From the NCBI RefSeq assembly GCF_058153355.1, contig NZ_CM177019.1: 64,000 bases of DNA. The stretch is one strand, 5' to 3'. The notes below the pieces were generated by a model that saw nothing but the letters and a program-made list of their open reading frames with translations, did not search any database and was not told the DNA's origin. This document shows positions 9,211 to 34,902 of this stretch, one piece after another; position 1 is the stretch's first letter; every line of letters starts with the position of its first letter. Both the position numbers and the translations under genes were made by a program.

Positions 9211-9335
9211 TGATGACTCCGGTTAACGATATCAGGTTATTGGCAAAAGGCGTGCCAATAATTTTTATGTGAATAATCAATAGATTGAAAAATGGGCGGA
9301 AAGCGTGTTTCCGGTTCGGCGGAAAAGTGCCTGCC

Positions 9336-9365: not shown

Positions 9366-9371
9366 ATTGTT

Positions 9372-10881
<1,510 letters not shown>

Positions 10882-10987
10882 CATGCCTGCAATCTGGGAA
10901 ACCGGGGTAGAAAAAAACTTGCAGGCCATAACAGTATCTACGGGTCCGCACCTGTTTTTATGCGTCTGCCCGTTTGTAGGCCCGAAC

Positions 10988-12388: not shown

Positions 12389-13231
12389 ATGAGTATTATT
12401 ATCAACAACTGGCGGATGGACCCGTCACTCAATGCCTTAATACATTGCGAAACGGGTGAAACACGTCGTCTCGGCGAATACCATTTTATTTTGCTGGAAA
12501 CATTAGCAAAAAATGCCGATGTGGTTTTATCACGATCTTATTTATGTGCCGAAGTATGGAAGAACCGCATTGTCGGCGGTAACAGCCTGCCGACGGCGAT
12601 CCACGCTCTGCGCGTTGCCATTGATGATGACGGCAAGCAACAGAACATTATTAAAACTATCCCGAAAAAAGGGTACCTGTGCAATAAAGAATATGTGTCT
12701 TTGCCGGAGTCATCGCCTGCAGAAGCGCTGATTATTACCGACCAGATACAGGATACAGCCCCAGAAGAGATATCTTCGACAACACCGCCTGTACCTGTTA
12801 GAAAAAAACATAAAGGACTGATGGGGTTAGCGTTGGCCGCAGCTGTTATATTTATTGGCTCGACCGTGGGGTATTCACACTTGAAAAGTACACCTGACGC
12901 CCCGCAACTGGTAAAAGAGTCAATTAACAGTCCAAGAATAAAAATATTTCATTTAACTTCTGCTGGAGAAAATAATTCCGTACCGTTACTGTCACAAACC
13001 CTCGCACCAGGAAAAGACAAACTCGATAATTTATTGTCAGCGCATAATATGACAATGACAACCTATTATAAATATGTTCGTAACCGACTGGAGAGTGATA
13101 TTGTTCTGCGCAACCAGTGCAATGGTAGCTGGCAATTAACCTTTAATGTGGAAGGCTGGCAGAACAGTGATATTAATAGCACGATGTATCAGAATTTAGA
13201 GAAGTTGTTAAAGACTGTGCAGAAGTGCTGA
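12389..13231 (+). CDS. ToxR/CadC-like transmembrane transcriptional regulator (winged-helix domain, single TM segment, periplasmic domain)
   Basis: 280-aa ORF; N-terminal OmpR/PhoB-type winged-helix motif, hydrophobic segment LMGLALAAAVIFIGSTVGY; may correspond to the Flag-2 transmembrane regulator. Confidence 0.6.
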   Translation: MSIIINNWRMDPSLNALIHCETGETRRLGEYHFILLETLAKNADVVLSRSYLCAEVWKNRIVGGNSLPTAIHALRVAIDDDGKQQNIIKTIPKKGYLCNKEYVSLPESSPAEALIITDQIQDTAPEEISSTTPPVPVRKKHKGLMGLALAAAVIFIGSTVGYSHLKSTPDAPQLVKESINSPRIKIFHLTSAGENNSVPLLSQTLAPGKDKLDNLLSAHNMTMTTYYKYVRNRLESDIVLRNQCNGSWQLTFNVEGWQNSDINSTMYQNLEKLLKTVQKC

Positions 13232-16849: not shown

Positions 16850-17042
16850 GTTGGATCCTTACCGGTAAATCGTGCCGGTTAAAAGCGGCGTGAAGTTGGA
16901 GATTCTTAAGTTCCGTAAACCGGGCGCCAGACACCGGATGCAGCCTGCATACGGGCACAAACATAAAAATATGTGCGAACTCGTAGATACTGTTATGGCC
17001 TGCAAGTTTTTTTCTACCCCGGTTTCCCAGATTGCAGGCATG

Positions 17043-18269
<1,227 letters not shown>

Positions 18270-18307
18270 TGATAAGCGTAGCGCATCAGGCAATCTGGCA
18301 CCAGACA

Positions 18308-19021
18308 TCACGCCGCATCACTGTCGGCATCGGGTACGCCAAACTGGCTAATCATGGTGAACGGCACTTCGCCTACACCGGCAACGTTAAGCACCGGAGA
18401 GCTGCCGTCGAGCGGGATGCGCACATCTTCCACTTCGCCGGAGACTTCAATCGGTACTTCTTCTTCCCCGGTATTGGTCACCACCGAGACGTCGTAATCG
18501 CCCGGCGGGATGCCGTAATCCGCCGGGTTAATCGAGAAATCCACTTGGCCTGGCCCAACCGACGAACTCCCTTCCGGGATCAGCGAGACGGTGTAGTCAT
18601 CGCCCGCAGCATCGGTAAAGTGGAGATCGGCGGTGGTACAGGCGTCGTCCAGCGTGGCGCGACCGTTAATGGTCTGGTCACTCACCTGCAAGGCGGTGGT
18701 CTGCACCATAATGTCGTCGCCCACCAGGTTGCCGAGCGCCATCACCTGAATGTTGCTCATCAGCACCGCGTTGGTATTGGCCTGCACGCTCATCTCTTCC
18801 ATCATCGCCACCTGCGCCATCGACGAAAGCTGGTCGATATATTCGGTGGCATCGGTCGGGTCGGTCGGGTCCTGGTTTTGGATCTCAGCGACAAACAGCG
18901 TCAGGAAAGTATCGACGGGCGAGCTATCGCTGCTGCTTGTCGTGTCGCTGGCTGCCACATTATTGCTTTCCGCCGTGGCGGTCGGTTGCGGCGATTGCGC
19001 ATTCAGCGCCAGGGTATTCAT
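18308..19021 (-). CDS. lfgD: FlgD-like hook capping/scaffold protein
   Basis: 237-aa ORF with FlgD N-terminal motif (FLTLFVAEIQNQDPTDP) and C-terminal beta domain. Confidence 0.75.
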   Translation of the reverse strand: MNTLALNAQSPQPTATAESNNVAASDTTSSSDSSPVDTFLTLFVAEIQNQDPTDPTDATEYIDQLSSMAQVAMMEEMSVQANTNAVLMSNIQVMALGNLVGDDIMVQTTALQVSDQTINGRATLDDACTTADLHFTDAAGDDYTVSLIPEGSSSVGPGQVDFSINPADYGIPPGDYDVSVVTNTGEEEVPIEVSGEVEDVRIPLDGSSPVLNVAGVGEVPFTMISQFGVPDADSDAA

Positions 19022-19766: not shown

Positions 19767-19871
19767 TGCTTATTGAAAACTGATCCCCATTTCTTGCGCC
19801 ACTCCCGCTTCAATCCGCATACGCTAAGCAATCGCTGCGCCAATTTTTAAGTAACTGATGAGAAAGGGTTT
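19767..19871. promoter_or_regulatory. Divergent intergenic control region between the rod/hook operon and the FlgA/FlgM/FlgN-like operon
   Basis: 105-bp gap between divergent operons; promoter elements not resolved. Confidence 0.3.
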
Positions 19872-20687: not shown

Positions 20688-20966
20688 ATGAAAATCACCC
20701 CGACGATGCCAGGCAATCGCCCGACAGCCACAACGGCAGGCTCCAGCCAGCCGCGTAAAAGTACGGCGACCACCACCACGACGCTGAGTGCCGACGACAT
20801 TACCCAGGCGGGATTGCAGTCTGCCCAGCAAACGCTGAACGACCAGCAAGAGAGCGATATCGACAGCGATAAAGTGGCGCAAATGCAGGCGATGCTGGCG
20901 TCCGGCAGCCTGCAAGTGGACACCGAACAGTTAGCCAGCGACATGCTGAGTTTTTTCCAGAACTAA
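20688..20966 (+). CDS. lfgM: FlgM-like anti-sigma-28 factor
   Basis: ~92-aa ORF (start MKITPTMPG) with Thr/Ser-rich N-terminus and FlgM-like C-terminus; the track ORF begins at 20631. Confidence 0.7.
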   Translation: MKITPTMPGNRPTATTAGSSQPRKSTATTTTTLSADDITQAGLQSAQQTLNDQQESDIDSDKVAQMQAMLASGSLQVDTEQLASDMLSFFQN

Positions 20967-21407: not shown

Positions 21408-21494
21408 CGCGAATACCTTCCCCATAGCGGAAACGGATTTTCCGCCTGATTTCCAATCCTTTGTTTTTGATTAAAAAAATTCCCGGCACGCTTA

Positions 21495-22463
21495 TTGCAG
21501 ATTCCGCAAAGGAATAAAGACTGGAAGCCTCCTATGAGTTTTATTGAATGTTACGAACCGGAATATGTGCGCAATTTTATGGCGCAATATCCCGATTCGC
21601 CTTTATACGTCAGCAAGGTGTGGAAGAATGAGATTCGCCAGAGCCTGGCATTGACCGATATTGCCAGTTGCAAAGCAGTGCTCAACGATGCCAGGGCCTT
21701 TGAATTACAGCTTACCTATCGCCCTGTGGAAGAAAATGCCGCAGCGCTCTCCGCGCGCGATGTGATAGTCAACCAGATAATTTTGAGCACCCTCACGCTC
21801 CCCGATTTAACCCCAGAGCTTTCACTGTATGCCGTCGGGATTTTGCTCTCCCGCGCCCGTAAAATGCCGGGCAGAGACGGCGATACTCTCGCCCGGCTGA
21901 CAGCACTGCCGCAGGCGCTGGCCGATCACGCCCAAATAGGCACGTTACAGGCACAGTTCGCCCAGCTACCGCCTGTGCCACTGCTGGCGCGCCAACTGGT
22001 GACGCTGCTCGGGAGTTTTGCATTTGACTGGTCGATACTGCCAGAAAGCCCGCGCAAAAATTCGCTGCCGTTGCAGGTAACCTTGCTAACGCTGCATGAC
22101 GCCAACAGCGAAGCCCTGATGCAGCAGCAGCTACAGACACAGTGGCAAACTACCTGGCAACAGCATTTTGCCACCGCTCCGTGGATGATGCGTAACTGGC
22201 TGATTTACCGGGTTTATCACGATGTGATTGGCCAGGCAGACGGGGCGGGTTATTTCCCGCTGGTGTGTGACTTTTACCTCATCCGCACGTTAATCAGTTT
22301 ATGGACGCTGGATGATTCACCGCTGCGGCAGGAGGATATTTTCGCCCTCTTCGCGGTGTTTGAACGCTGGCGAGTGAGTGAAAATGCCGTGCTGATTCGC
22401 CAGCAAATTCAGTCATTATGTGCCGCCGACCCGCTGCTTTCAGCGTTTTCGTTGCTGCCGTGA
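21495..22463 (+). CDS. Hypothetical protein inside the Flag-2 locus
   Basis: 322-aa ORF with no motif I recognise; codon usage resembles neighbouring flagellar genes; start may be at MSFIECYEP (21534). Confidence 0.45.
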   Translation: MQIPQRNKDWKPPMSFIECYEPEYVRNFMAQYPDSPLYVSKVWKNEIRQSLALTDIASCKAVLNDARAFELQLTYRPVEENAAALSARDVIVNQIILSTLTLPDLTPELSLYAVGILLSRARKMPGRDGDTLARLTALPQALADHAQIGTLQAQFAQLPPVPLLARQLVTLLGSFAFDWSILPESPRKNSLPLQVTLLTLHDANSEALMQQQLQTQWQTTWQQHFATAPWMMRNWLIYRVYHDVIGQADGAGYFPLVCDFYLIRTLISLWTLDDSPLRQEDIFALFAVFERWRVSENAVLIRQQIQSLCAADPLLSAFSLLP

Positions 22464-25422: not shown

Positions 25423-26244
25423 ATGACTTATAATAAAAAAGTAACTTCCGGTACAACAAGCCAGAAACAAAACAACATTGTCACTCAAAAAATATCTCGC
25501 CCAAAGGAATTGTTTCTATTATTTTGGGTTGATGAGTCCGATGATAGCCGACGTTCTATTTTTGAAGAAGCATGTCTGACGCGTTATTTCAATATCCTTT
25601 ACTCCCCCGAGTATAAAAAAGAAACACAGATAGTTTATCATTTATCAATTAACACATTTAATCAAATCAAAGAAATATTAGAAATCTTTATAAACAAGAA
25701 TGGAGGTAAAACTAAAGCAAAGGTTAAAGAAGTCAGTTTATTCTCACATGGGGGGCCAATTCATGGTCCTACAACCTCAAACTCTATAAATACACCTTCC
25801 GTGCCTAAATACCCACAACAAATGGACATATCCGGAGGATGGGATTCAATTGATTTTAACTGGTCAAACAATGCTATGTTTGTTATGTATGGTTGTCGCA
25901 CTAGTTATGCAAGTGATGATTCAGGACAAGGTTTTGCCAGTAAATTATCCCTATTAGATAATTTTAAGGACGTGAATGTCTGGGGTCAAACAGAAAGTAC
26001 TTATCCATCTTATTTCCCAGATATCAGGACAACGTCGATTATGAGGTCAATAAATATAGGTTGGTCTTTTTCACCAACATACATGGTTGCCAATTCTGAA
26101 GGTCAAGGATGGGATGCATTATTCCCGGATGATCGAAATCCATTAAAAGCTCTCCCTATGCAGTGTTATAATAATGGGACATTGATTTTAACCTGCGATC
26201 AAAGCAATTTTAATGATCACCGGAAGAATAAATCAAATGATTAG
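25423..26244 (+). CDS. Hypothetical protein, AT-rich gene embedded in the flagellar locus
   Basis: 273-aa ORF; strongly AT-biased compared with flanking genes; no motif recognised with confidence. Confidence 0.5.
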   Translation: MTYNKKVTSGTTSQKQNNIVTQKISRPKELFLLFWVDESDDSRRSIFEEACLTRYFNILYSPEYKKETQIVYHLSINTFNQIKEILEIFINKNGGKTKAKVKEVSLFSHGGPIHGPTTSNSINTPSVPKYPQQMDISGGWDSIDFNWSNNAMFVMYGCRTSYASDDSGQGFASKLSLLDNFKDVNVWGQTESTYPSYFPDIRTTSIMRSINIGWSFSPTYMVANSEGQGWDALFPDDRNPLKALPMQCYNNGTLILTCDQSNFNDHRKNKSND

Positions 26245-26791
26245 CATTGTATTGAGAAGCATTGTATTGAGAAGCTTTATTTTATTATTCATAATAATAG
26301 TGTATCCGGATTATAATAAAAACCCACCTGCCTTTGAAGTATATGGGGAAAATGACATACTTAAGGATATGGTTATTAATATGAAAACTTATAGATACCA
26401 TAGTAGGGAAAACTCTTCCCCCACAGCTATAGTGCAAACCATCCTTTTTAAAGGAAATATACAGCAAGTTTTTGAAAGCAATGACATGGGTGGTGCGAGC
26501 TTCTTTTTTTCTTATAACAATAAGGTTGAAACGCTGGTAACAGACGCTTTCTTTTTAAATAAAAAATTAGACAAACTGCATGATGCAAATATTTTTGAGG
26601 TTATAAAGCATAAGGAAAACATCGTTATTAGATATTACAAGTGCAAAATTGAATATATGCAAAGAGAAAAATTTATCGAAATAGAGATATCAACAAACAA
26701 AAATAGTTATTTTAACAAGAATGGAATAAAACAAAAAGATACAAATAAATATAACACATATTTCTTCAATTACTTTGAGTCTCAAAAATAA
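26237..26791 (+). CDS. Hypothetical protein with hydrophobic N-terminus, AT-rich, coupled to the preceding ORF
   Basis: ~184-aa ORF (MISIVLRSIVLRSFILLFIIIVY...), 8-nt overlap with the upstream ORF; the track ORF begins at 26213. Confidence 0.45.
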   Translation: MISIVLRSIVLRSFILLFIIIVYPDYNKNPPAFEVYGENDILKDMVINMKTYRYHSRENSSPTAIVQTILFKGNIQQVFESNDMGGASFFFSYNNKVETLVTDAFFLNKKLDKLHDANIFEVIKHKENIVIRYYKCKIEYMQREKFIEIEISTNKNSYFNKNGIKQKDTNKYNTYFFNYFESQK

Positions 26792-27201: not shown

Positions 27202-27636
27202 CTACTCCGCTAATTTGTGCCGTAGCCAGCACTGAACGGCGATGTCATCCACCGCTTTTTGCGCTTTCGCCGTGGCACTTTCTTGCTGCTCGCGGCGTTT
27301 GTCATCCAGCGTCAGGGCCACCACTTTCTCTTCGCATGCCGCCGCCGTCAGGTTTTTCTGCATTCGCGTAGCCTTGATGTTAGCCAGCGTTTTTTCCTGC
27401 TCCTGCCAGGCGATCACTTTGCGCAAGGTGCCTTTGTAGCCGCTGACGTTTTTCAGCGATTCCACCGACGCCGCCGCGCCCGCAGATGTTTTCTCCACCA
27501 GGTAGCCTAACGCTTTGATATTGTTGTCATAGCCCGCGCAAATCTGTTTTTGCTTTGCCAGCTCGACGGTTTTGTCTTTGACCGATTTATCCCGCAGGCG
27601 CTGCAATTGCGCGAGGGTGTCGATGATTTGTCGCAT
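27202..27636 (-). CDS. lfiJ: FliJ-like export apparatus protein
   Basis: 144-aa coiled-coil ORF downstream of the FliI-like ATPase. Confidence 0.7.
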   Translation of the reverse strand: MRQIIDTLAQLQRLRDKSVKDKTVELAKQKQICAGYDNNIKALGYLVEKTSAGAAASVESLKNVSGYKGTLRKVIAWQEQEKTLANIKATRMQKNLTAAACEEKVVALTLDDKRREQQESATAKAQKAVDDIAVQCWLRHKLAE

Positions 27637-27638
27637 AG

Positions 27639-28976
27639 TTACTGTTCTGCCTTTTTGGCACCAGGAAAGAGGATTTGCAGGCGGCTTTGTACCAGTTCGA
27701 GGGAGGCGGGTTCGCGCATCTCCTGGCGTAAAAATCGCTCGATGGCCGGGAACATTTTCACCGCTTTGTCGACGCTGGCATCCGCGCCTGCCACGTAGCC
27801 ACCGAGTGGGATCAGCGGTTTGATCTCCATATAGGCGGCGTAGTTTTGCTTTAACGCGCGAGCGGATTGCTGATGTTCCGGGCGGGTGACCTGGTTCATG
27901 CAGCGGCTGATCGACTGGCCGATATCGATGGCCGGATAGTGCCCCGCTTCCGCCAGTTTGCGGGTTAATACGATATGCCCGTCCAGCACCGCGCGGGCGC
28001 AGTCGACGATGGGATCTTGCTGGTCGTCGCCTTCCGCCAGCACGGTGTAGATGGCAGTCATCGATCCCGCGCTTTCGCTGTTGCCTGCGCTTTCGACCAG
28101 TTTGGGGATCATGCCGAATGCCGACGGCGGATAGCCTTTGGTAGCGGGCGGTTCGCCAAGAGAGAGCGCAATTTCACGCTGCGCCATCGCATAGCGGGTC
28201 AGGGAATCCACCAGCAGCAAAACGTGATGCCCGCGGTCGCGAAACCAGGCGGCGATGGAGTGGCACAGTTCGGTGGCTTTCAGGCGCATCAGCGGCGATT
28301 CATCGGCGGGCGCGACGACGACGATAGACTTCGCCAGCCCGTCCGCGCCCAGTGAATGGTCGATAAACTCTTTCACTTCGCGCCCGCGTTCGCCAATCAG
28401 CCCGACCACCACGATGTCGGCTTTGGTCTGGCGGGTGATCATCCCCAGCAGCACGCTTTTCCCGACGCCGCTGCCCGCCATTAGCCCGACGCGCTGGCCT
28501 TTGCCGATGGTCAGCAGACCGTTGATCGCTTTTACACCCACATCTAAGGGTTCGTCCACCGAACGGCGGGTTAAGGGATTGACCGAGGGCGGCAACGGCG
28601 GCAGAAGATCGTTGCCGTTCAGGCGACCTTTGCCATCCAGCGGTTCGCCGAGGCCATTCACCACGCGGCCTAACCAGCTTTCGCCAATCAAAATATCGTG
28701 GGCTTTTTCTTCCGGGAAGACACGCGCCCCCGCCATCAGGCCAACTGGCTGTTTGAATGGCATTAAATAGGTGATGTCGCGATTAAAGCCCACGGCCTGC
28801 GCGTCAATCAGCGTGTGGTTGGCACTTTCGATGCGGCACAACTGCCCGGTCATTAACGGGCAGCCGACGCTCTCCAGCAGAATGCCGTTCAGGCGCACCA
28901 GCCGTCCGGCGACGCGAGCCAGCGGGATCGACTCCAGCGAACGCAGGGCGTTATCGAAAGCAGAAAAATCACTCAC
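27639..28976 (-). CDS. lfiI: FliI flagellum-specific ATPase
   Basis: 445-aa ORF with Walker A GSGVGKSVL and F1/T3SS ATPase-like sequence. Confidence 0.9.
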   Translation of the reverse strand: MSDFSAFDNALRSLESIPLARVAGRLVRLNGILLESVGCPLMTGQLCRIESANHTLIDAQAVGFNRDITYLMPFKQPVGLMAGARVFPEEKAHDILIGESWLGRVVNGLGEPLDGKGRLNGNDLLPPLPPSVNPLTRRSVDEPLDVGVKAINGLLTIGKGQRVGLMAGSGVGKSVLLGMITRQTKADIVVVGLIGERGREVKEFIDHSLGADGLAKSIVVVAPADESPLMRLKATELCHSIAAWFRDRGHHVLLLVDSLTRYAMAQREIALSLGEPPATKGYPPSAFGMIPKLVESAGNSESAGSMTAIYTVLAEGDDQQDPIVDCARAVLDGHIVLTRKLAEAGHYPAIDIGQSISRCMNQVTRPEHQQSARALKQNYAAYMEIKPLIPLGGYVAGADASVDKAVKMFPAIERFLRQEMREPASLELVQSRLQILFPGAKKAEQ

Positions 28977-29679
28977 TCTGCGTCTCCGGCGTCAGCGTCT
29001 CTTGCAGCGCGGTCATGCATTGTTCAAGGCGATGCTCGCAGCCGATATCCAGTTCTGATTTATCGGTGATCACCCGGCATTCCCCCGGCGGCAAATCCGG
29101 CGAAGGCGTCAGCCCCCATTCGCTGACCTTTTCCGGCACCGCGTCGCGCAGGCGGTTAAACTCTTCCGTGCTCAACATCACTTGCAGGGTTTCCGGCATC
29201 GCCGGGAAGGCCGCCAGCGCCTCTTCCACCAGCGCCAGTAACTGCGTCGGTTGCAGCGCCAGTTCGCAGCGAATCACCTGGCGGGTGACTTTTTCCACCA
29301 GTTGCAGCAAATCTTCCCGCTGTTTACGTTCGATATGGGCGAGGAAGTCGTTCACTTTACCGCTGATGGCTTCCAGCGGCTGCGCCGCCTCAATAAATTT
29401 CTTGCGCCCTTCCTGCTGCCCGGCGAGGCTGCCTTCGGTGTAGCCCTGACGTTGCCCCTCGGCAAAACCTTGCTGATGACCTTCGCTAAAGCCCTGCTCC
29501 TGCCCCTCGGTCATGCCCTGAGCAAACCCTTTTTGCAGCCCTTCCTGAAAACCGTCCATCAACTGGCGCTGGTAATCGGCGGCGCTAATGCTGGCAGTGA
29601 GCGGTTCTCCGGTCACCGCACGCTGGCGCGGCGGGAAACGGTGCAGGCGATAGCGCCCGCGCAGTGTTTCAATGGTCAT
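28969..29679 (-). CDS. lfiH: FliH-like export ATPase regulator
   Basis: 236-aa ORF with Gly/Gln-rich repeats, between FliG-like and FliI-like genes. Confidence 0.7.
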   Translation of the reverse strand: MTIETLRGRYRLHRFPPRQRAVTGEPLTASISAADYQRQLMDGFQEGLQKGFAQGMTEGQEQGFSEGHQQGFAEGQRQGYTEGSLAGQQEGRKKFIEAAQPLEAISGKVNDFLAHIERKQREDLLQLVEKVTRQVIRCELALQPTQLLALVEEALAAFPAMPETLQVMLSTEEFNRLRDAVPEKVSEWGLTPSPDLPPGECRVITDKSELDIGCEHRLEQCMTALQETLTPETQSE

Positions 29680-29682
29680 GGG

Positions 29683-30693
29683 TTACTCCGCCGTCTGTTC
29701 CGCAAAGAGCTGTAGCTGAAGTTCGCCCGCCTCTTCCAGTTCACGGGCGATACCCATGATTTCGCGGCGGATCTGTTCGATACGGCTGACCGGCACCGGC
29801 CCCAGACGCGCAGTGATCGCTTCCAGTTGCTGCACCTGACGTTTTGGCATCACCGCGTAAATGGAGCGACGTAACAGAGCTTCGGTGCCTTTCAGCGCCA
29901 CCGCCCAGTCTTCCATCGGCACTTCGTCGAGCAGGCGTCGGCGCACCTCTTCGTTCTGGCGACTGAGGATAAAGAAGTCGTACATCTCATCCTGCAACTG
30001 CTCCAGTACGTCTTCGTCGCGCTCGCGCATCTGGTCGAGGATCACCTGCTGGTTGCCCTGGAAGCGGTTGACAATATCCGCCGCCTGTTTGATGCCTTTC
30101 ACCTTCGAGCCGTGCTCTGAAAGCACCGACAGGCCACGTTCGATCAGACGATCCAGTTCATCCACCACGTCGCGGTTGACGTCGTTGAGTTTCGCTACCC
30201 GGTAAAGAATTTCGTTTTGCACCGATTCGTTGAGATAAGAGAGCACCGCTGCCGAGATTTCCGGCGTCAGAAACGCGAGGAATACCGCCTGCAATTGCAG
30301 ATGCTCTTCGGAGATCAGCATCGCCAGCTGGCGCGGTTCCACCCATTGCAGGCGCGCCATCCGCGAGCGGATCTCATCGCCGTAGATGCCGTTGATCACG
30401 CTGCTGGCGATCTCGGTGCCCAACGCCTTGTTAAGAATGCCCTGCAACATGGATCGCGATGCACCGTTGATCCCGCTCTGTTCGCGGAATTCATCAAAGA
30501 AGTTATTGATCACCTTGCGCGCCATGCTGGTTTTGACGCCGGAAAGCCGCGCCATGTTTTCGCTCAGGCGCACTACTTCTTCGCGGCTGAGTTTTTGCAT
30601 CACCGTTGCCGCCGCTTCTTCGCCCAGACACAGCAGCAGGATCGCCGCCTGTTCCAGGTAGCTGTTGCTCTTATTTATTGTCAATTCGCTCAT
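29683..30693 (-). CDS. lfiG: FliG-like rotor/switch protein
   Basis: FliG-like sequence; start chosen at MSELTINKSN (the track ORF extends to 30726). Confidence 0.8.
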   Translation of the reverse strand: MSELTINKSNSYLEQAAILLLCLGEEAAATVMQKLSREEVVRLSENMARLSGVKTSMARKVINNFFDEFREQSGINGASRSMLQGILNKALGTEIASSVINGIYGDEIRSRMARLQWVEPRQLAMLISEEHLQLQAVFLAFLTPEISAAVLSYLNESVQNEILYRVAKLNDVNRDVVDELDRLIERGLSVLSEHGSKVKGIKQAADIVNRFQGNQQVILDQMRERDEDVLEQLQDEMYDFFILSRQNEEVRRRLLDEVPMEDWAVALKGTEALLRRSIYAVMPKRQVQQLEAITARLGPVPVSRIEQIRREIMGIARELEEAGELQLQLFAEQTAE

Positions 30694-32317
30694 TGCTGGT
30701 AATCCATTGTCTGAGAACTTCGGCAACGCGATCGGTATCGCTCATGGCCAATTTTTGCAGGAACTCGAGTTTCACTTCGAGGCCAGAACTCTGGGACGGC
30801 AGGCTGTCATCGCCAGGCAGCGACGGCAGGTCGACATTTTTACGCTCCTCTTCCGGCACGGCGATCCACGGTTCGCTGATGGCTTCCGGTTCTGGTGTGA
30901 TAACCGGCGCACGTACCGCCGTCAGCCGTTTCATCAGCGGGCGCACCACAAAGAACAGCAGCAACAGCGCCAGCAGGCCGCAGCCAATCAGCCGCACCCA
31001 CGCCAGTACACTGTCATCTTTCCACAGTGGAATAACCGGTTCGACAGGCACCGCCTGCGGCACAAAGTTGAGCAGTGATAAGGTGAGATTGTCACCACGC
31101 TGGGCGTCGATTCCGGCGGCATTGTTCAGCAACGCGGTCAGTTGCGTGGTTTGCTCCGGCTTCCAGTTTTTCAGCGCCGGGGCGTTTTGATTGAGCACCA
31201 CCGCCACGTTGAGGCGTTTCACCGCAAAGCCGGGATGCTGAATATGCTGGACGCTGCGGTCGTAAGAGTAGTCGCGCTTACTTTCGCTGTGTTTGGAAAG
31301 CGCTTCCGGCGAGCGGTTTTCTTCCGCACCGTTGGTCATCTGATTCGCTGCAATCGGCGGACGGTTACTGAGTGAACCGGGCACGCCCATCGCCACCTGA
31401 TTGGTGTCGCTGTCCAGCACGCTCTCTTCGCGGTTGATTTTCGGCGCGTCGCCGTAGTGTTCCTGAGTTTCGTCGATGGTGCTGAGGTCGAGATCCGGCA
31501 TCACACTGACGCGGTAATTCCCCATGCCAACCAGCGAATCCAGCACGTTCGCCACGCTGGCACGGGTTTTGTCCTGAATATCTTTGAGGATCTGATCGCG
31601 TTTACGGGTCGCGGCAGAAACCGCCTCGCCGGCGCCAATGCCGTCGGTCAGCAGATTTCCCGCCTGATCGACCACGCTGACTTTACTGGCTTGCAGCCCC
31701 GGAATACTGCCGGACACCAGATGCACAATGGCGTTCACCTGGTCCATATTCAGCTTCGCGCCGTAATGCAAGCGCACCACCACCGAGGCACTGTTTTGCG
31801 GCTCATCGCTGACCACAAACGAGCTTTCTTCGTTGATCGCCAGATGCACCCGCGCGCTCTCCACCGCGTCCAGCGACATGATGCTCTGCGCCAGCTCCCC
31901 TTCGAGACTGCGTTTATAGCGCACGTTCTGCACGAACTGACTGCTGCCGAGCACTTCGTCTTTGTCCATCAGCTCGTAGCCGCTGGGCAATATCGCCTGC
32001 ACGCCTTTCACGGCAAGGGTCATTCGCGTTTTCGACAGTTCGTCTTCCGGCACCAGTATCTGCCCGCTTTGCGGGTCGATGCGGTAGGTGAGCTTTTCGC
32101 CGTCCAGCACGGTGACAATCTGCGACACGGGCAGATTTTCCTGGCGTCCGTAGAGCGAGACGTAGCCGCGATTCCCCGTCCATAGCACGCTGACGATAAT
32201 CGCCGTCGCCGCAACAGCAAGCCCCACACCCGCCATCAACGCCCAGCGTTTGTTATCTGCGAGCCGCAGTCGAAACGCCGGAAAGGCCTGGGTTAACTTC
32301 TTTATTTGTGCATTCAT
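30671..32317 (-). CDS. lfiF: FliF MS-ring protein
   Basis: 548-aa ORF with N-terminal TM and FliF-like sequence. Confidence 0.85.
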   Translation of the reverse strand: MNAQIKKLTQAFPAFRLRLADNKRWALMAGVGLAVAATAIIVSVLWTGNRGYVSLYGRQENLPVSQIVTVLDGEKLTYRIDPQSGQILVPEDELSKTRMTLAVKGVQAILPSGYELMDKDEVLGSSQFVQNVRYKRSLEGELAQSIMSLDAVESARVHLAINEESSFVVSDEPQNSASVVVRLHYGAKLNMDQVNAIVHLVSGSIPGLQASKVSVVDQAGNLLTDGIGAGEAVSAATRKRDQILKDIQDKTRASVANVLDSLVGMGNYRVSVMPDLDLSTIDETQEHYGDAPKINREESVLDSDTNQVAMGVPGSLSNRPPIAANQMTNGAEENRSPEALSKHSESKRDYSYDRSVQHIQHPGFAVKRLNVAVVLNQNAPALKNWKPEQTTQLTALLNNAAGIDAQRGDNLTLSLLNFVPQAVPVEPVIPLWKDDSVLAWVRLIGCGLLALLLLFFVVRPLMKRLTAVRAPVITPEPEAISEPWIAVPEEERKNVDLPSLPGDDSLPSQSSGLEVKLEFLQKLAMSDTDRVAEVLRQWITSNERIDNK

Positions 32318-32321
32318 AGGG

Positions 32322-32663
32322 TTAGATCGACATACTCATCAGATCGTTAAATCCGGTGGCGATTTTGTTGCGCACCTGCACCAGCGCGGAGAAAGAGAGC
32401 GACGCCTGCTGGCTGGCGATCATCGCCCCGGCGAGGTCATCACTTTTGCCCGTGTCGACAGCCGTTTGCTGCTGCTCCGCCACCTGCTGGAACTGGTCAA
32501 CGTGACCGAGCGCACCGGACATAATGCGGTTAAACGACACGTCCGGGTCGGTGGAACTGAAGGTCATGGCGGGTAGCACTGGCGCCTGGGCGTTGGCCTG
32601 CATCCGCTGCACGTCCTGCATAATTTGCGCCTGCATGGTGCTGTTGATTGTGGTAATGCTCAT
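32322..32663 (-). CDS. lfiE: FliE-like basal body protein
   Basis: ~113-aa ORF starting MSITTINSTMQAQ; the track ORF extends upstream into the lafK stop region. Confidence 0.7.
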   Translation of the reverse strand: MSITTINSTMQAQIMQDVQRMQANAQAPVLPAMTFSSTDPDVSFNRIMSGALGHVDQFQQVAEQQQTAVDTGKSDDLAGAMIASQQASLSFSALVQVRNKIATGFNDLMSMSI

Positions 32664-32677
32664 TTTTAACTTCCGGG

Positions 32678-33664
32678 TCAGGAGAAAACTTCGATACCGT
32701 GCTTGCGCATGGAGGCCAGTCGATAGCGCAGGGCGCGCGGGGTAATGCCTAACAGGTCGGCGATTTTGCTGCGGTTGCCCTGATATTTGCGCATCAGGTC
32801 GGCGATATATTGATACTGCGCGCTTCGTCCGTGCTGGCCTAAATCGCCGGTTTCGGCAATGTGGACGGCGGGCTGAACAGGCCATTGCAGTTCACTGTGG
32901 TCAGCAATATCGGTGTCCGGCAGGCCTAATGCATCCGGGTAAATTACGCCGTCGCGATTTAAAATCATTCCCCGCTGAATGGCGTTTTCCAGTTGGCGCA
33001 CGTTACCGGGCCAGCGGTAATTAAGCAGCGCGCGGCGGGTAGATTCGGACAGGGTGATATTTTTCACCAGTACCGTGGAGTATTTTTTAATAAATGACTC
33101 TGCCAGCGGAATAATATCGTTCAGGCGTTCACGCAGTGGCGGCATGGTAATAGGGATAACCGCCAGACGATAATAGAGATCTTCACGAAAACGTCCGGCG
33201 GCAACTTCCTGATCCAGTTTTTTATTGGTGCAGGCAATCAGGCGAAAATTGAGTTTGATTTGTCGGTTGCTGCCTAATCGCTCAACCTGTTGTTCCTGCA
33301 AAACGCGTAATATTTTGGCCTGTAGCGCCAGCGGCATTTCACCAATTTCATCGAGTAATAAGGTGCCGTTATTTGCCAGTTCCATTTTTCCTGGCACGCT
33401 GGCAATTGCGCCGGTAAATGCACCTTTGTCGTAGCCAAATAACGTCGATTCCAGCATATTTTCCGGGATCGCCGCGCAGTTCACGCCGATATAGGGCGCG
33501 TTATCATTTTCACCAAAGGCTACGGTGTGAATATATTTCGCCACGCACTCTTTCCCCGCGCCGGTTTCGCCCTGAATCAGGACCGGCACGTTAAAGGCGG
33601 CGACACGCTTTGCCAGAGTAAAAGCGTTTATGCTGGAGGCGGCAGATGCAATAAGTTCAGACAT
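32678..33664 (-). CDS. lafK: Sigma-54-dependent transcriptional activator with AAA+ and HTH domains only, no N-terminal receiver
   Basis: 328-aa ORF; Walker A GETGAGKE near the N-terminus, GAFTGA-like region, C-terminal Fis-type HTH. Confidence 0.8.
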   Translation of the reverse strand: MSELIASAASSINAFTLAKRVAAFNVPVLIQGETGAGKECVAKYIHTVAFGENDNAPYIGVNCAAIPENMLESTLFGYDKGAFTGAIASVPGKMELANNGTLLLDEIGEMPLALQAKILRVLQEQQVERLGSNRQIKLNFRLIACTNKKLDQEVAAGRFREDLYYRLAVIPITMPPLRERLNDIIPLAESFIKKYSTVLVKNITLSESTRRALLNYRWPGNVRQLENAIQRGMILNRDGVIYPDALGLPDTDIADHSELQWPVQPAVHIAETGDLGQHGRSAQYQYIADLMRKYQGNRSKIADLLGITPRALRYRLASMRKHGIEVFS

Positions 33665-33788
33665 AGGGTGAACAATATAAGTAGCGACAATAATCAGGAT
33701 GTTCTGAAGCGTATCACCGGCGGGATTAACAAGTTTGAATTAAACGATAATAAAAATATTATTTGTTTACAAACAACGAGTTATCCAT

Positions 33789-33872
<84 letters not shown>

Positions 33873-34050
33873 GGGCGTGCAATGTTTTATGACGATGCCT
33901 GATATATCATCCTTTAATAATTTAATTATTTTTTCACCCTATTAATAATTTGCCTGCTTCACGCCCCCTCTATTTAATAACCCACCTTGTGTCACTGCCG
34001 GAATTGCGTGCACAAAAACGCCCATACCATTACAGCAGAGAAAGTAAGCC

Positions 34051-34902
34051 ATGCTGAAGTACAGTAAAACGCCAGGCATCTTTAAATTAGAAGGTAATCG
34101 GCTCGGACGCCCCTACCATCGCCTGCCGACCCTGTTTACGGGGAATTTTGACGTGATTGATTCGCATCTCGGCAGCTACTTTCTCAAAAAGCATCGCAGC
34201 AATATCACCTTAAAAAAGATTGGCTGCGAGATGGATATTATCAATAAAAACGCCGAGTTGATGGTTTCCCAGGTCGGGCATCTGGCGTTTGATATTGATC
34301 GCTCCTTGCTGTTAATGCTGCTGGGCAATTTTTATGGTCTGGAGTCTTCTCTTGAAGAGGCGAAAGCGCATAACGGCCTGCCGACCAAAACCGAAACACG
34401 ATTAAAGAACCGACTCGCGCTGGATATCTGCACGCTGATATTTAATCTGCAAACCTCCGGTATTGCGCTGAAATTAAAGCTGGACAGCAGCACGGTAATT
34501 ACCCACTGGGCGTATCAATTAACCTTTACCCTCGCGGGCGATGAAGAGAGCCGTTTTCGTATTTTGCTCGACGATGCCCACACCGATTTTATTTTAAATC
34601 TGATCCGCCACAGTGAGCACAGTAAACCGCAGCAGGTGGCGAAATCCGTCAACAAGCCGGCACTGATTAAAGAGATCATCCGCTCTCTGCCGTTGACCCT
34701 GAACGTCAAAATCGCCGAGCTGTCGATGAATGTTGCCGATCTGGCGCAGATAAAAGCCGGAGATATTTTACCCATCTCGCTGGGAGAAACATTCCCGGTG
34801 GCGATTGGGCAATCTGAATTATTTAGCGCCCTGATAGTGGAAGACAAAGACAAACTGTTTTTGTCGGAGCTGGCGGGCAAAAATGAGAATAGCCATGAGT
34901 AA
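34051..34902 (+). CDS. lfiM: FliM-like switch protein (short form)
   Basis: 283-aa ORF with FliM-like sequence upstream of the FliN-like gene. Confidence 0.7.
   Translation: MLKYSKTPGIFKLEGNRLGRPYHRLPTLFTGNFDVIDSHLGSYFLKKHRSNITLKKIGCEMDIINKNAELMVSQVGHLAFDIDRSLLLMLLGNFYGLESSLEEAKAHNGLPTKTETRLKNRLALDICTLIFNLQTSGIALKLKLDSSTVITHWAYQLTFTLAGDEESRFRILLDDAHTDFILNLIRHSEHSKPQQVAKSVNKPALIKEIIRSLPLTLNVKIAELSMNVADLAQIKAGDILPISLGETFPVAIGQSELFSALIVEDKDKLFLSELAGKNENSHE

Follow-up and report, generated by a model that had tools for sequence, protein, structure and literature searches.

What controls a flagellar activator that begins almost directly with its ATPase? The question is raised by one gene, at positions 32,678 to 33,664, in a 64,000-nucleotide stretch of NCBI RefSeq assembly GCF_058153355.1 (contig NZ_CM177019.1), which was analysed as a whole and is called the window below. 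The gene is lafK, which has been described before and is found here in its ordinary, conserved short form; its product is the sigma-54-dependent enhancer-binding protein that serves Flag-2, the lateral-type flagellar cluster of E. coli. A first-pass annotation had described its product as a LafK-like activator without any N-terminal regulatory domain, and had predicted from this a constitutively active, PspF-like protein. The missing signal domain is already on record in the literature, where LafK has been grouped with PspF and HrpR/S as enhancer-binding proteins that lack a signal-recognition domain (Francke et al. 2011, PMC3162934). The observation is correct but known, and its importance beyond correct annotation is small. 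What is added here is a distinction between two kinds of LafK: a Vibrio form with a cryptic pseudo-receiver, missed by threshold-based surveys, and an enterobacterial form that is truly receiver-less.

Architecture and identity of LafK

The open reading frame (ORF) annotated at these positions exists and lies on the minus strand, which the first-pass annotation had not specified. The same 987-nt coding sequence (CDS) is called by the NCBI Prokaryotic Genome Annotation Pipeline (PGAP) in E. coli genomes. Pfam finds the AAA+ core, the AAA+ lid and a helix-turn-helix (HTH) domain in the protein and no other match (Table 1), and the frame does open almost at the Walker A motif, with only 31 residues N-terminal of it, and close with the HTH. 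Its membership of the bacterial enhancer-binding proteins is borne out by an AAA+ core in which Walker A, Walker B, the arginine fingers and sensor II are all present and the GAFTGA motif is exact. Sensor II (GNVRQL, residues 220-225) was located by motif search within the AAA+ lid, and G32, G35, G37, K38 and E39 of Walker A were invariant in a 16-sequence alignment. LafK is a two-module activator, composed of an AAA+ ATPase and a C-terminal Fis-type HTH, without a receiver or sensor domain.

A longer reading of the gene is excluded by its upstream sequence. An in-frame TAA stop stands 26 codons before the ATG, and the 25 codons between them contain no ATG, GTG or TTG; therefore, no extension of LafK could add a domain, and the alternative upstream start that had been suggested as a possible source of a receiver is ruled out. 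The 120 bp upstream of the gene, which had been called non-coding, are part of a longer intergenic stretch that reaches up to the divergent lfiM.

Over its full length, LafK shows 95% identity with its E. coli 042 counterpart (CAH19120.1); a 2-aa indel and 16 substitutions separate the two. The 042 protein has the same domains, belongs to the same length class (326 aa, 328 aa here), and its gene occupies the syntenic position between lfiM and lfiE. The definition of Flag-2 and lafK goes back to that strain (Ren et al. 2005, cited after PMC6993521), and lafK is, according to De Maayer et al. 2020 (PMC6993521), a regulator gene that is conserved and specific to Flag-2. The segment from 32300 to 34100 is 98.4% identical to its counterpart in E. 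coli R32_14_1F, and 1276 of 5426 complete E. coli genomes contain it at ≥80% coverage.

The genes lfhA-lfhB-lfiR-Q-P-N-M lie on one strand and lafK-lfiE-F-G-H-I-J on the other. Since only 14 bp separate lafK from lfiE, lafK is probably co-transcribed with lfiE onward, in a putative operon of MS-ring, switch and export genes. A scored scan found no -24/-12 site in the 3' part of lafK.

Conservation of the short form

The 90%-identity cluster that contains the window LafK has 1606 member sequences of 328 aa. Besides E. coli, homologues of 324-348 aa, each with just the three Pfam domains of LafK, were found in 13 further genera, namely Citrobacter, Leminorella, Enterobacter, Scandinavium, Pseudescherichia, Atlantibacter, Siccibacter, Budvicia, Pantoea, Hafnia, Pragia, Regiella and Paramixta. 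Counting that of E. coli, named enterobacterial genera with the short LafK thus number at least 14. As this length is kept throughout enterobacterial Flag-2, the gene is not 5'-truncated, a possibility that the first-pass annotation had proposed to check against orthologues. The order lfiM <> lafK-fliE-F-G-H-I-J was kept in all five other enterobacterial genera checked for context, and the intergenic region in front of lafK measured 434-641 bp in these. The alignment showed the leaders before the AAA+ core to be short (1-48 residues) and unconserved. Upstream of the start codon, AGGA or AAGGG was observed in Leminorella and Atlantibacter at the position equivalent to 33665-33690 of the window.

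The ratio of non-synonymous to synonymous substitution rates (dN/dS) of lafK was 0.06-0.08 against other E. coli alleles and 0.04-0.10 against Citrobacter, Leminorella and Atlantibacter. These values point to purifying selection, and the catalytic and sigma-54-contact motifs are all intact. When the regions upstream of lafK in seven loci were searched by tblastn with 20 receiver N-termini, LafK-type ones among them, only chance matches were obtained (best E value 0.19), and no receiver remnant was found. Taken together, these comparisons indicate that the whole enterobacterial Flag-2 lineage has conserved the receiver-less architecture.

Several sequences that seemed to be longer forms of LafK were rejected. 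P0046, P0066 and P0078 (66-74% identity, with receiver or ACT N-termini) come from chimeric metagenome contigs of 2.6-5.2 kb, in which the conserved FREDL/PPLRER motif marks the junction between the N-terminal part of another activator and LafK. P0046 begins with the receiver domain of a receiver-type activator; the N-terminus of P0066 we take to be that of E. coli NtrC, and that of P0078 is presumably from TyrR. Such chimeras could mislead domain surveys. P0009 and P0011 proved to be frameshift fusions with FliE and FliG.

A degenerate receiver in Vibrio LafK

Vibrio LafK was studied in V. campbellii LJC015 (locus L011, NZ_CP050465.1), which was found by tblastn of a plasmid collection. The replicon is a chromosome 2 of 2.06 Mb that is filed there as a plasmid, as is a 4.94-Mb chromosome of Aeromonas caviae (locus L012, NZ_AP026896.1). 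The Aeromonas caviae match was rejected as a LafK; it proved to be the polar FlrC, adjoining FlrA and FlrB.

The V. campbellii locus has the order fliM_L <> motY_L-lafK-fliE_L-fliF_L-fliG_L, and its LafK has 444 aa. The first ~120 residues give a full-length match to Response_reg of 22.3 bits (E 1.5e-4), where the cut-off is 30.2, and residues 2-115 match solved receiver domains with an E value of 1e-6. A Ser occupies the position of the phospho-acceptor Asp, and E-P stands in place of the DD acidic pair. Vibrio LafK thus retains a degenerate, non-phosphorylatable receiver, which is sub-threshold in Pfam. The alignment with Vibrio LafK, which the first-pass annotation had recommended, therefore matches in part: E. 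coli LafK aligns only with the post-receiver part, AAA+ and HTH, at 48.5% identity over the whole E. coli protein, and the Vibrio protein carries the degenerate receiver as an extra N-terminal domain.

The nearest long relative of the enterobacterial clade was P0137 (468 aa), which has a degenerate N-terminus and precedes fliE-J in a lateral-type cluster. The neighbour-joining tree, which was poorly resolved, placed other short forms at scattered positions; among these, P0193 likewise precedes fliE-J. Most likely, the short form would have arisen by loss of the pseudo-receiver in the lineage leading to enterobacterial Flag-2, with similar losses elsewhere.

We put forward only tentatively the further idea that enterobacterial Flag-2, having dropped the pseudo-receiver, shifted its input to the transcription of lafK, and that this input might be supplied by LafZ. 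If true, the pseudo-receiver would be the entry point of Vibrio surface-sensing signals into LafK, and the enterobacterial protein, as a naturally occurring 'always-on' deletion variant, would offer a means of testing this role of the pseudo-receiver.

Promoter candidates and a proposed mode of control

The window was scanned in full for -24/-12 promoters with a scored, position-aware, simple consensus (threshold ≥10 of 12 positions). All nine matches lay inside Flag-2, and three of these nine best matches were correctly oriented with respect to a Flag-2 operon and preceded its first gene by at most 40 bp (rough binomial P ~4e-5). The search for sigma-54 promoters upstream of the flagellar operons, which had also been recommended, thus yielded candidates before lfgB, lafB and a FliB-like operon. 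The lafB site is also present in E. coli N96, and its operon includes the sigma-28 gene lafS. A Leminorella counterpart of the third site, TGGCACATCAATTGCT (20862-20877 of locus L007), precedes a FliB_C gene, and the flagellin-modification genes may belong to the sigma-54/LafK regulon. A plain search of the whole window for TGGCAC-N5-TTGCW with mismatches showed no enrichment (32 matches vs 43 expected), and an E. coli-type sigma-28 consensus was not found upstream of lafA.

The lafK-lfiM intergenic region was without a -24/-12 site in all seven loci, from six genera, that were scanned. This fits the situation in Vibrio, where the fliM_L operon is LafK-independent (PMC3930126). In the window, the region contains a pair of repetitive extragenic palindromic (REP) sequences, forming a bacterial interspersed mosaic element (BIME). 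E. coli N96 is ~55-60 bp, or one REP, shorter here, with the alignment gap at 33839-33893. A divergent promoter region is an unusual location for such elements. Just downstream of the BIME, an AT-rich block holds a palindrome, TTGTTTGTAAACAA, which may be an operator; Atlantibacter and Budvicia have a partly conserved version of the block.

Because no sigma-54 site precedes lafK or lfiM, the output of LafK is probably set by the amount of protein made. We propose the following scheme as the likely one. A sigma-54-independent promoter in the long AT-rich lafK-lfiM region would transcribe lafK together with the early genes lfiE-J, for the MS ring, the switch and the export ATPase. LafK, which we infer to be constitutively active, would form a ring without a phosphorylation signal and bind enhancers through its HTH. 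Its hydrolysis of ATP would open the sigma-54 closed complexes at the promoters of lfgB (rod and hook), of lafB to lafS (cap, chaperones and sigma-28) and of the flagellin-modification genes. Sigma-28 (LafS) would then switch on the late genes, completing the predicted hierarchy. Silencing or activation would act at the promoter of lafK itself, possibly via LafZ, a ToxR/CadC-like membrane regulator that is, more speculatively, a candidate upstream controller of the Flag-2 cluster.

In E. coli EC958, Flag-2 stays silent in the laboratory (PMC4637896); this agrees with control acting upstream of LafK rather than with an always-on system. To switch on a silent E. coli Flag-2, one would accordingly look at the lafK promoter region, with its AT-rich sequence, its BIME and no sigma-54 site, and not for a phosphorylation signal. 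The first-pass annotation had concluded that control must be transcriptional or act through a partner protein; the two routes are sensible, but "must" is too strong, as proteolysis or a ligand on the AAA+ domain is possible too.

A number of points weigh against this reading. That LafK acts without a signal is a prediction from its sequence, and some activators, of the NtrC type, need their receiver for assembly. In E. coli, no recognisable Shine-Dalgarno sequence precedes the lafK ATG (…TATATTGTTCACCCTATG, 33665-33690), and the sigma-70-like candidate for lafK is a weak consensus match (9/12). Cross-genus support was obtained for one of the three sigma-54 promoter candidates only, all of them simple consensus calls, and the three promoter regions have in common two weak 10-mers (~0.3 expected), none of which is established as an enhancer motif. 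E. coli LafK is 48.5% identical to V. campbellii LafK and 47.9% identical to the polar FlrC of A. caviae; with values this close, orthology with Vibrio LafK rests on gene order. The direction and number of receiver losses are likewise not firmly settled by the neighbour-joining tree, which is star-like.

We regard it as unlikely, and as less likely than control by amount, that LafK is gated post-translationally by a separate partner binding its AAA+ domain, in which case the amount of LafK alone would not be decisive. Activators that are domain-less or carry a pseudo-receiver usually have such a partner: PspA acts on PspF and HrpV on HrpS, and further precedents are FleN for FleQ and FliX for FlbD. 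No PspA-, HrpV-, FleN- or FliX-like gene was, however, noticed on the gene map of the window Flag-2, of which few products were profile-searched, and the cluster-specific extra genes are lafZ, for a DNA-binding membrane protein, and lafW, which is hook-associated. LafV of Vibrio does modulate LafK-dependent genes (PMC9303241). Flag-2 is laboratory-silent even where the cluster is largely intact (PMC4637896), as gating by a partner would have it, but a silent lafK promoter explains a silent cluster equally well.

State of Flag-2 in this strain

Thirty-two of 39 tested Flag-2 genes are intact in comparison with E. coli N96. The genes lfgE-J, for the hook, distal rod and L and P rings, are missing, ~5.1 kb being replaced by a 1.4-kb segment with an IS110-family transposase. 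A second, identical copy of this insertion sequence (IS) lies in the opposite orientation between lafB and lafA; the transposase has 326 aa (Pfam DEDD_Tnp_IS110, Transposase_20), and the element presumably resembles IS621, a REP-targeting 'bridge RNA' element. A premature TAA was found at codon 7 of lfgB (19770-19772), CAA being the codon in both N96 and R32_14_1F. In addition, the lfgB promoter candidate has a -24 box of TGGCGC, compared with TGGCAC in other E. coli. With these lesions the strain cannot build a Flag-2 flagellum, although its lafK is intact. The lesions differ from those of E. coli 042: the window strain combines the lfgE-J deletion with the lfgB stop, and 042 has a frameshift in lfgC. 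In EC958, unlike in 042, lfgC is intact (PMC4637896).

With a flagellar regulon that cannot build a flagellum, lafK of this strain might be a functionless leftover, or be co-opted for sigma-54 promoters outside Flag-2. The replacement of lfgE-J by the IS110-family element, the second copy between lafB and lafA, the lfgB stop and the mutated -24 box would all fit. We nevertheless hold this to be improbable, as the nine best -24/-12 matches of the window all fall within Flag-2, and as lafK and the 32 other Flag-2 genes that were found are intact, with 95-100% identity to their N96 counterparts; the damage thus seems to be recent and is uninformative on the normal role of lafK.

Hardly credible, and largely refuted, is the explanation that lafK is a decaying pseudogene, the recent 5'-truncated remnant of a longer response-regulator gene that was cut, for example, by REP/BIME insertion: the ~120 aa by which Vibrio LafK is longer, the BIME just upstream, the decaying cluster and the want of an obvious ribosome-binding site would suggest it, but the same start and length recur in the at least 14 named genera, some of the loci having upstream DNA that does not align with the REP segment of E. 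coli, and the low dN/dS (0.04-0.10), the intact catalytic motifs and the absence of a receiver-like coding remnant upstream in all seven loci tested speak against it.

Elsewhere in the cluster, a variable region (25423-26791) between a glycosyltransferase gene and the gene adjoining lfiJ holds two lysine/asparagine-rich ORFs of low-G+C type (273 and 192 aa), the first with a weak DUF4347 match. Its counterpart in E. coli N96 has two ORFs of similar size and position, and that in R32_14_1F has different cargo (ISAs1 elements and hypothetical genes).

Table 1. Coordinates of lafK, its motifs and the other Flag-2 features discussed, in positions of the window
Feature	Position	Strand	Description
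lafK CDS	32678..33664	-	328 aa, 987 nt, ATG start; sigma-54-dependent activator of Flag-2 lateral flagellar cluster
Sigma54_activat (AAA+) core	33149..33649	-	residues 6-172, PF00158, E 8e-64
Walker A GETGAGKE	33548..33571	-	residues 32-39, motif search
GAFTGA loop (sigma-54 contact)	33407..33424	-	residues 81-86, exact motif
Walker B LLLDE	33347..33361	-	residues 102-106
Arginine-finger segment REDLYYR	33167..33187	-	residues 160-166; R160 and R166 invariant in the 16-sequence alignment
AAA+ lid domain (AAA_lid_14)	32927..33133	-	residues 178-246, PF25601, E 6e-20
Fis-type HTH (HTH_8)	32714..32815	-	residues 284-317, PF02954, E 8e-9; predicted enhancer-binding domain
In-frame TAA stop	33740..33742	-	26th codon upstream of lafK ATG; caps N-terminal extension at 25 residues
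lfiE-F-G-H-I-J	27205..32663	-	begins 14 bp downstream of lafK
Divergent lafK-lfiM intergenic region	33665..34050	.	386 bp, AT-rich; no -24/-12 consensus on either strand, no receiver remnant
REP pair (BIME)	~33788..33874	.	inside lafK-lfiM intergenic region; repeat matches >140,000 places in E. coli genomes
Sigma-70-like promoter candidate, lafK	33758..33787	-	TGGATA, 18 nt, AATAAT; consensus scan only, AT-rich block
Palindrome TTGTTTGTAAACAA	33763..33776		upstream of lafK; overlaps sigma-70-like promoter candidates of both strands
Candidate sigma-54 promoter, lfgBCD	19827..19842	-	TGGCGCAGCGATTGCT, 36 bp upstream of lfgB ATG
Candidate sigma-54 promoter, lafB-C-D-E-F-S-T-U	9242..9257	-	TGGCACGCCTTTTGCC, 31 bp upstream of lafB ATG
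Candidate sigma-54 promoter, FliB-like (lysine-N-methylase) and glycosyltransferase operon	21484..21499	+	CGGCACGCTTATTGCA
lafZ	12389..13231	+	ToxR/CadC-like membrane regulator; winged HTH 25-97, one hydrophobic segment; Trans_reg_C E 1e-13
IS110-family element, copy replacing lfgE-J	16911-18310		transposase ORF 17092-18072, strand -
IS110-family element, copy between lafB and lafA	9370-10980		transposase ORF 9852-10832, strand +

Comparison with known sigma-54 activators

The closest solved structure to LafK is the AAA+ domain of V. cholerae FlrC (E 1e-74); the match to PspF is weaker (E 2e-53). PspF has the same layout of AAA+ and HTH without an N-terminal regulatory domain, and is a distant relative by sequence: LafK stays below both NCBIfam cut-offs for PspF (TIGR02974, 236.3 vs 443.55 bits; NF008622, 206.2 vs 529). 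Neither a psp operon nor a PspA partner was found near lafK, whose neighbours are flagellar genes. "PspF-like", as the first-pass annotation had it, is apt for the architecture, in line with the published grouping with PspF and HrpR/S (PMC3162934), but not for the sequence, which is FlrC/FlbD-like.

FlbD was among the best partial matches in NCBIfam, with 311.7 bits against an equivalog cut-off of 750. FlrC, FleR and FlbD are like LafK in controlling middle flagellar genes with sigma-54. They differ in having a phosphorylatable receiver together with a cognate kinase (FlrB, FleS) or a trans-acting factor (FliX); LafK has no Response_reg match in Pfam, and the gene map shows no sensor kinase gene in the Flag-2 cluster of the window.

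HrpR/HrpS and FleQ/FleT are also without a signal-input domain, but they act as pairs and E. coli Flag-2 has a single gene. A distant metagenomic locus (L005, 7312-9011) was observed to carry two short sigma-54 activators in tandem (230 and 336 aa), with no N-terminal domain, before fliE-J; these resemble the FleQ/FleT and HrpR/HrpS pairs, and such a tandem was seen only at this locus. With regard to FleQ-type cyclic di-GMP binding, the residues following Walker A are R-N in FleQ, and LafK has K43-Y44.

Vibrio LafK, with the V. parahaemolyticus protein as its prototype and a published role as a sigma-54-dependent activator of the lateral flagellar genes, shares with E. coli LafK the AAA+ and HTH_8 modules and a position directly upstream of fliE-F-G of the lateral cluster, divergent from fliM_L. 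In Vibrio, motY lies upstream within the operon, which is not the case in E. coli. Databases and the Pfam-based survey treat every LafK as being without a signal domain; the Vibrio and enterobacterial forms, one with a pseudo-receiver and one without, should not be assumed to be alike in regulation.

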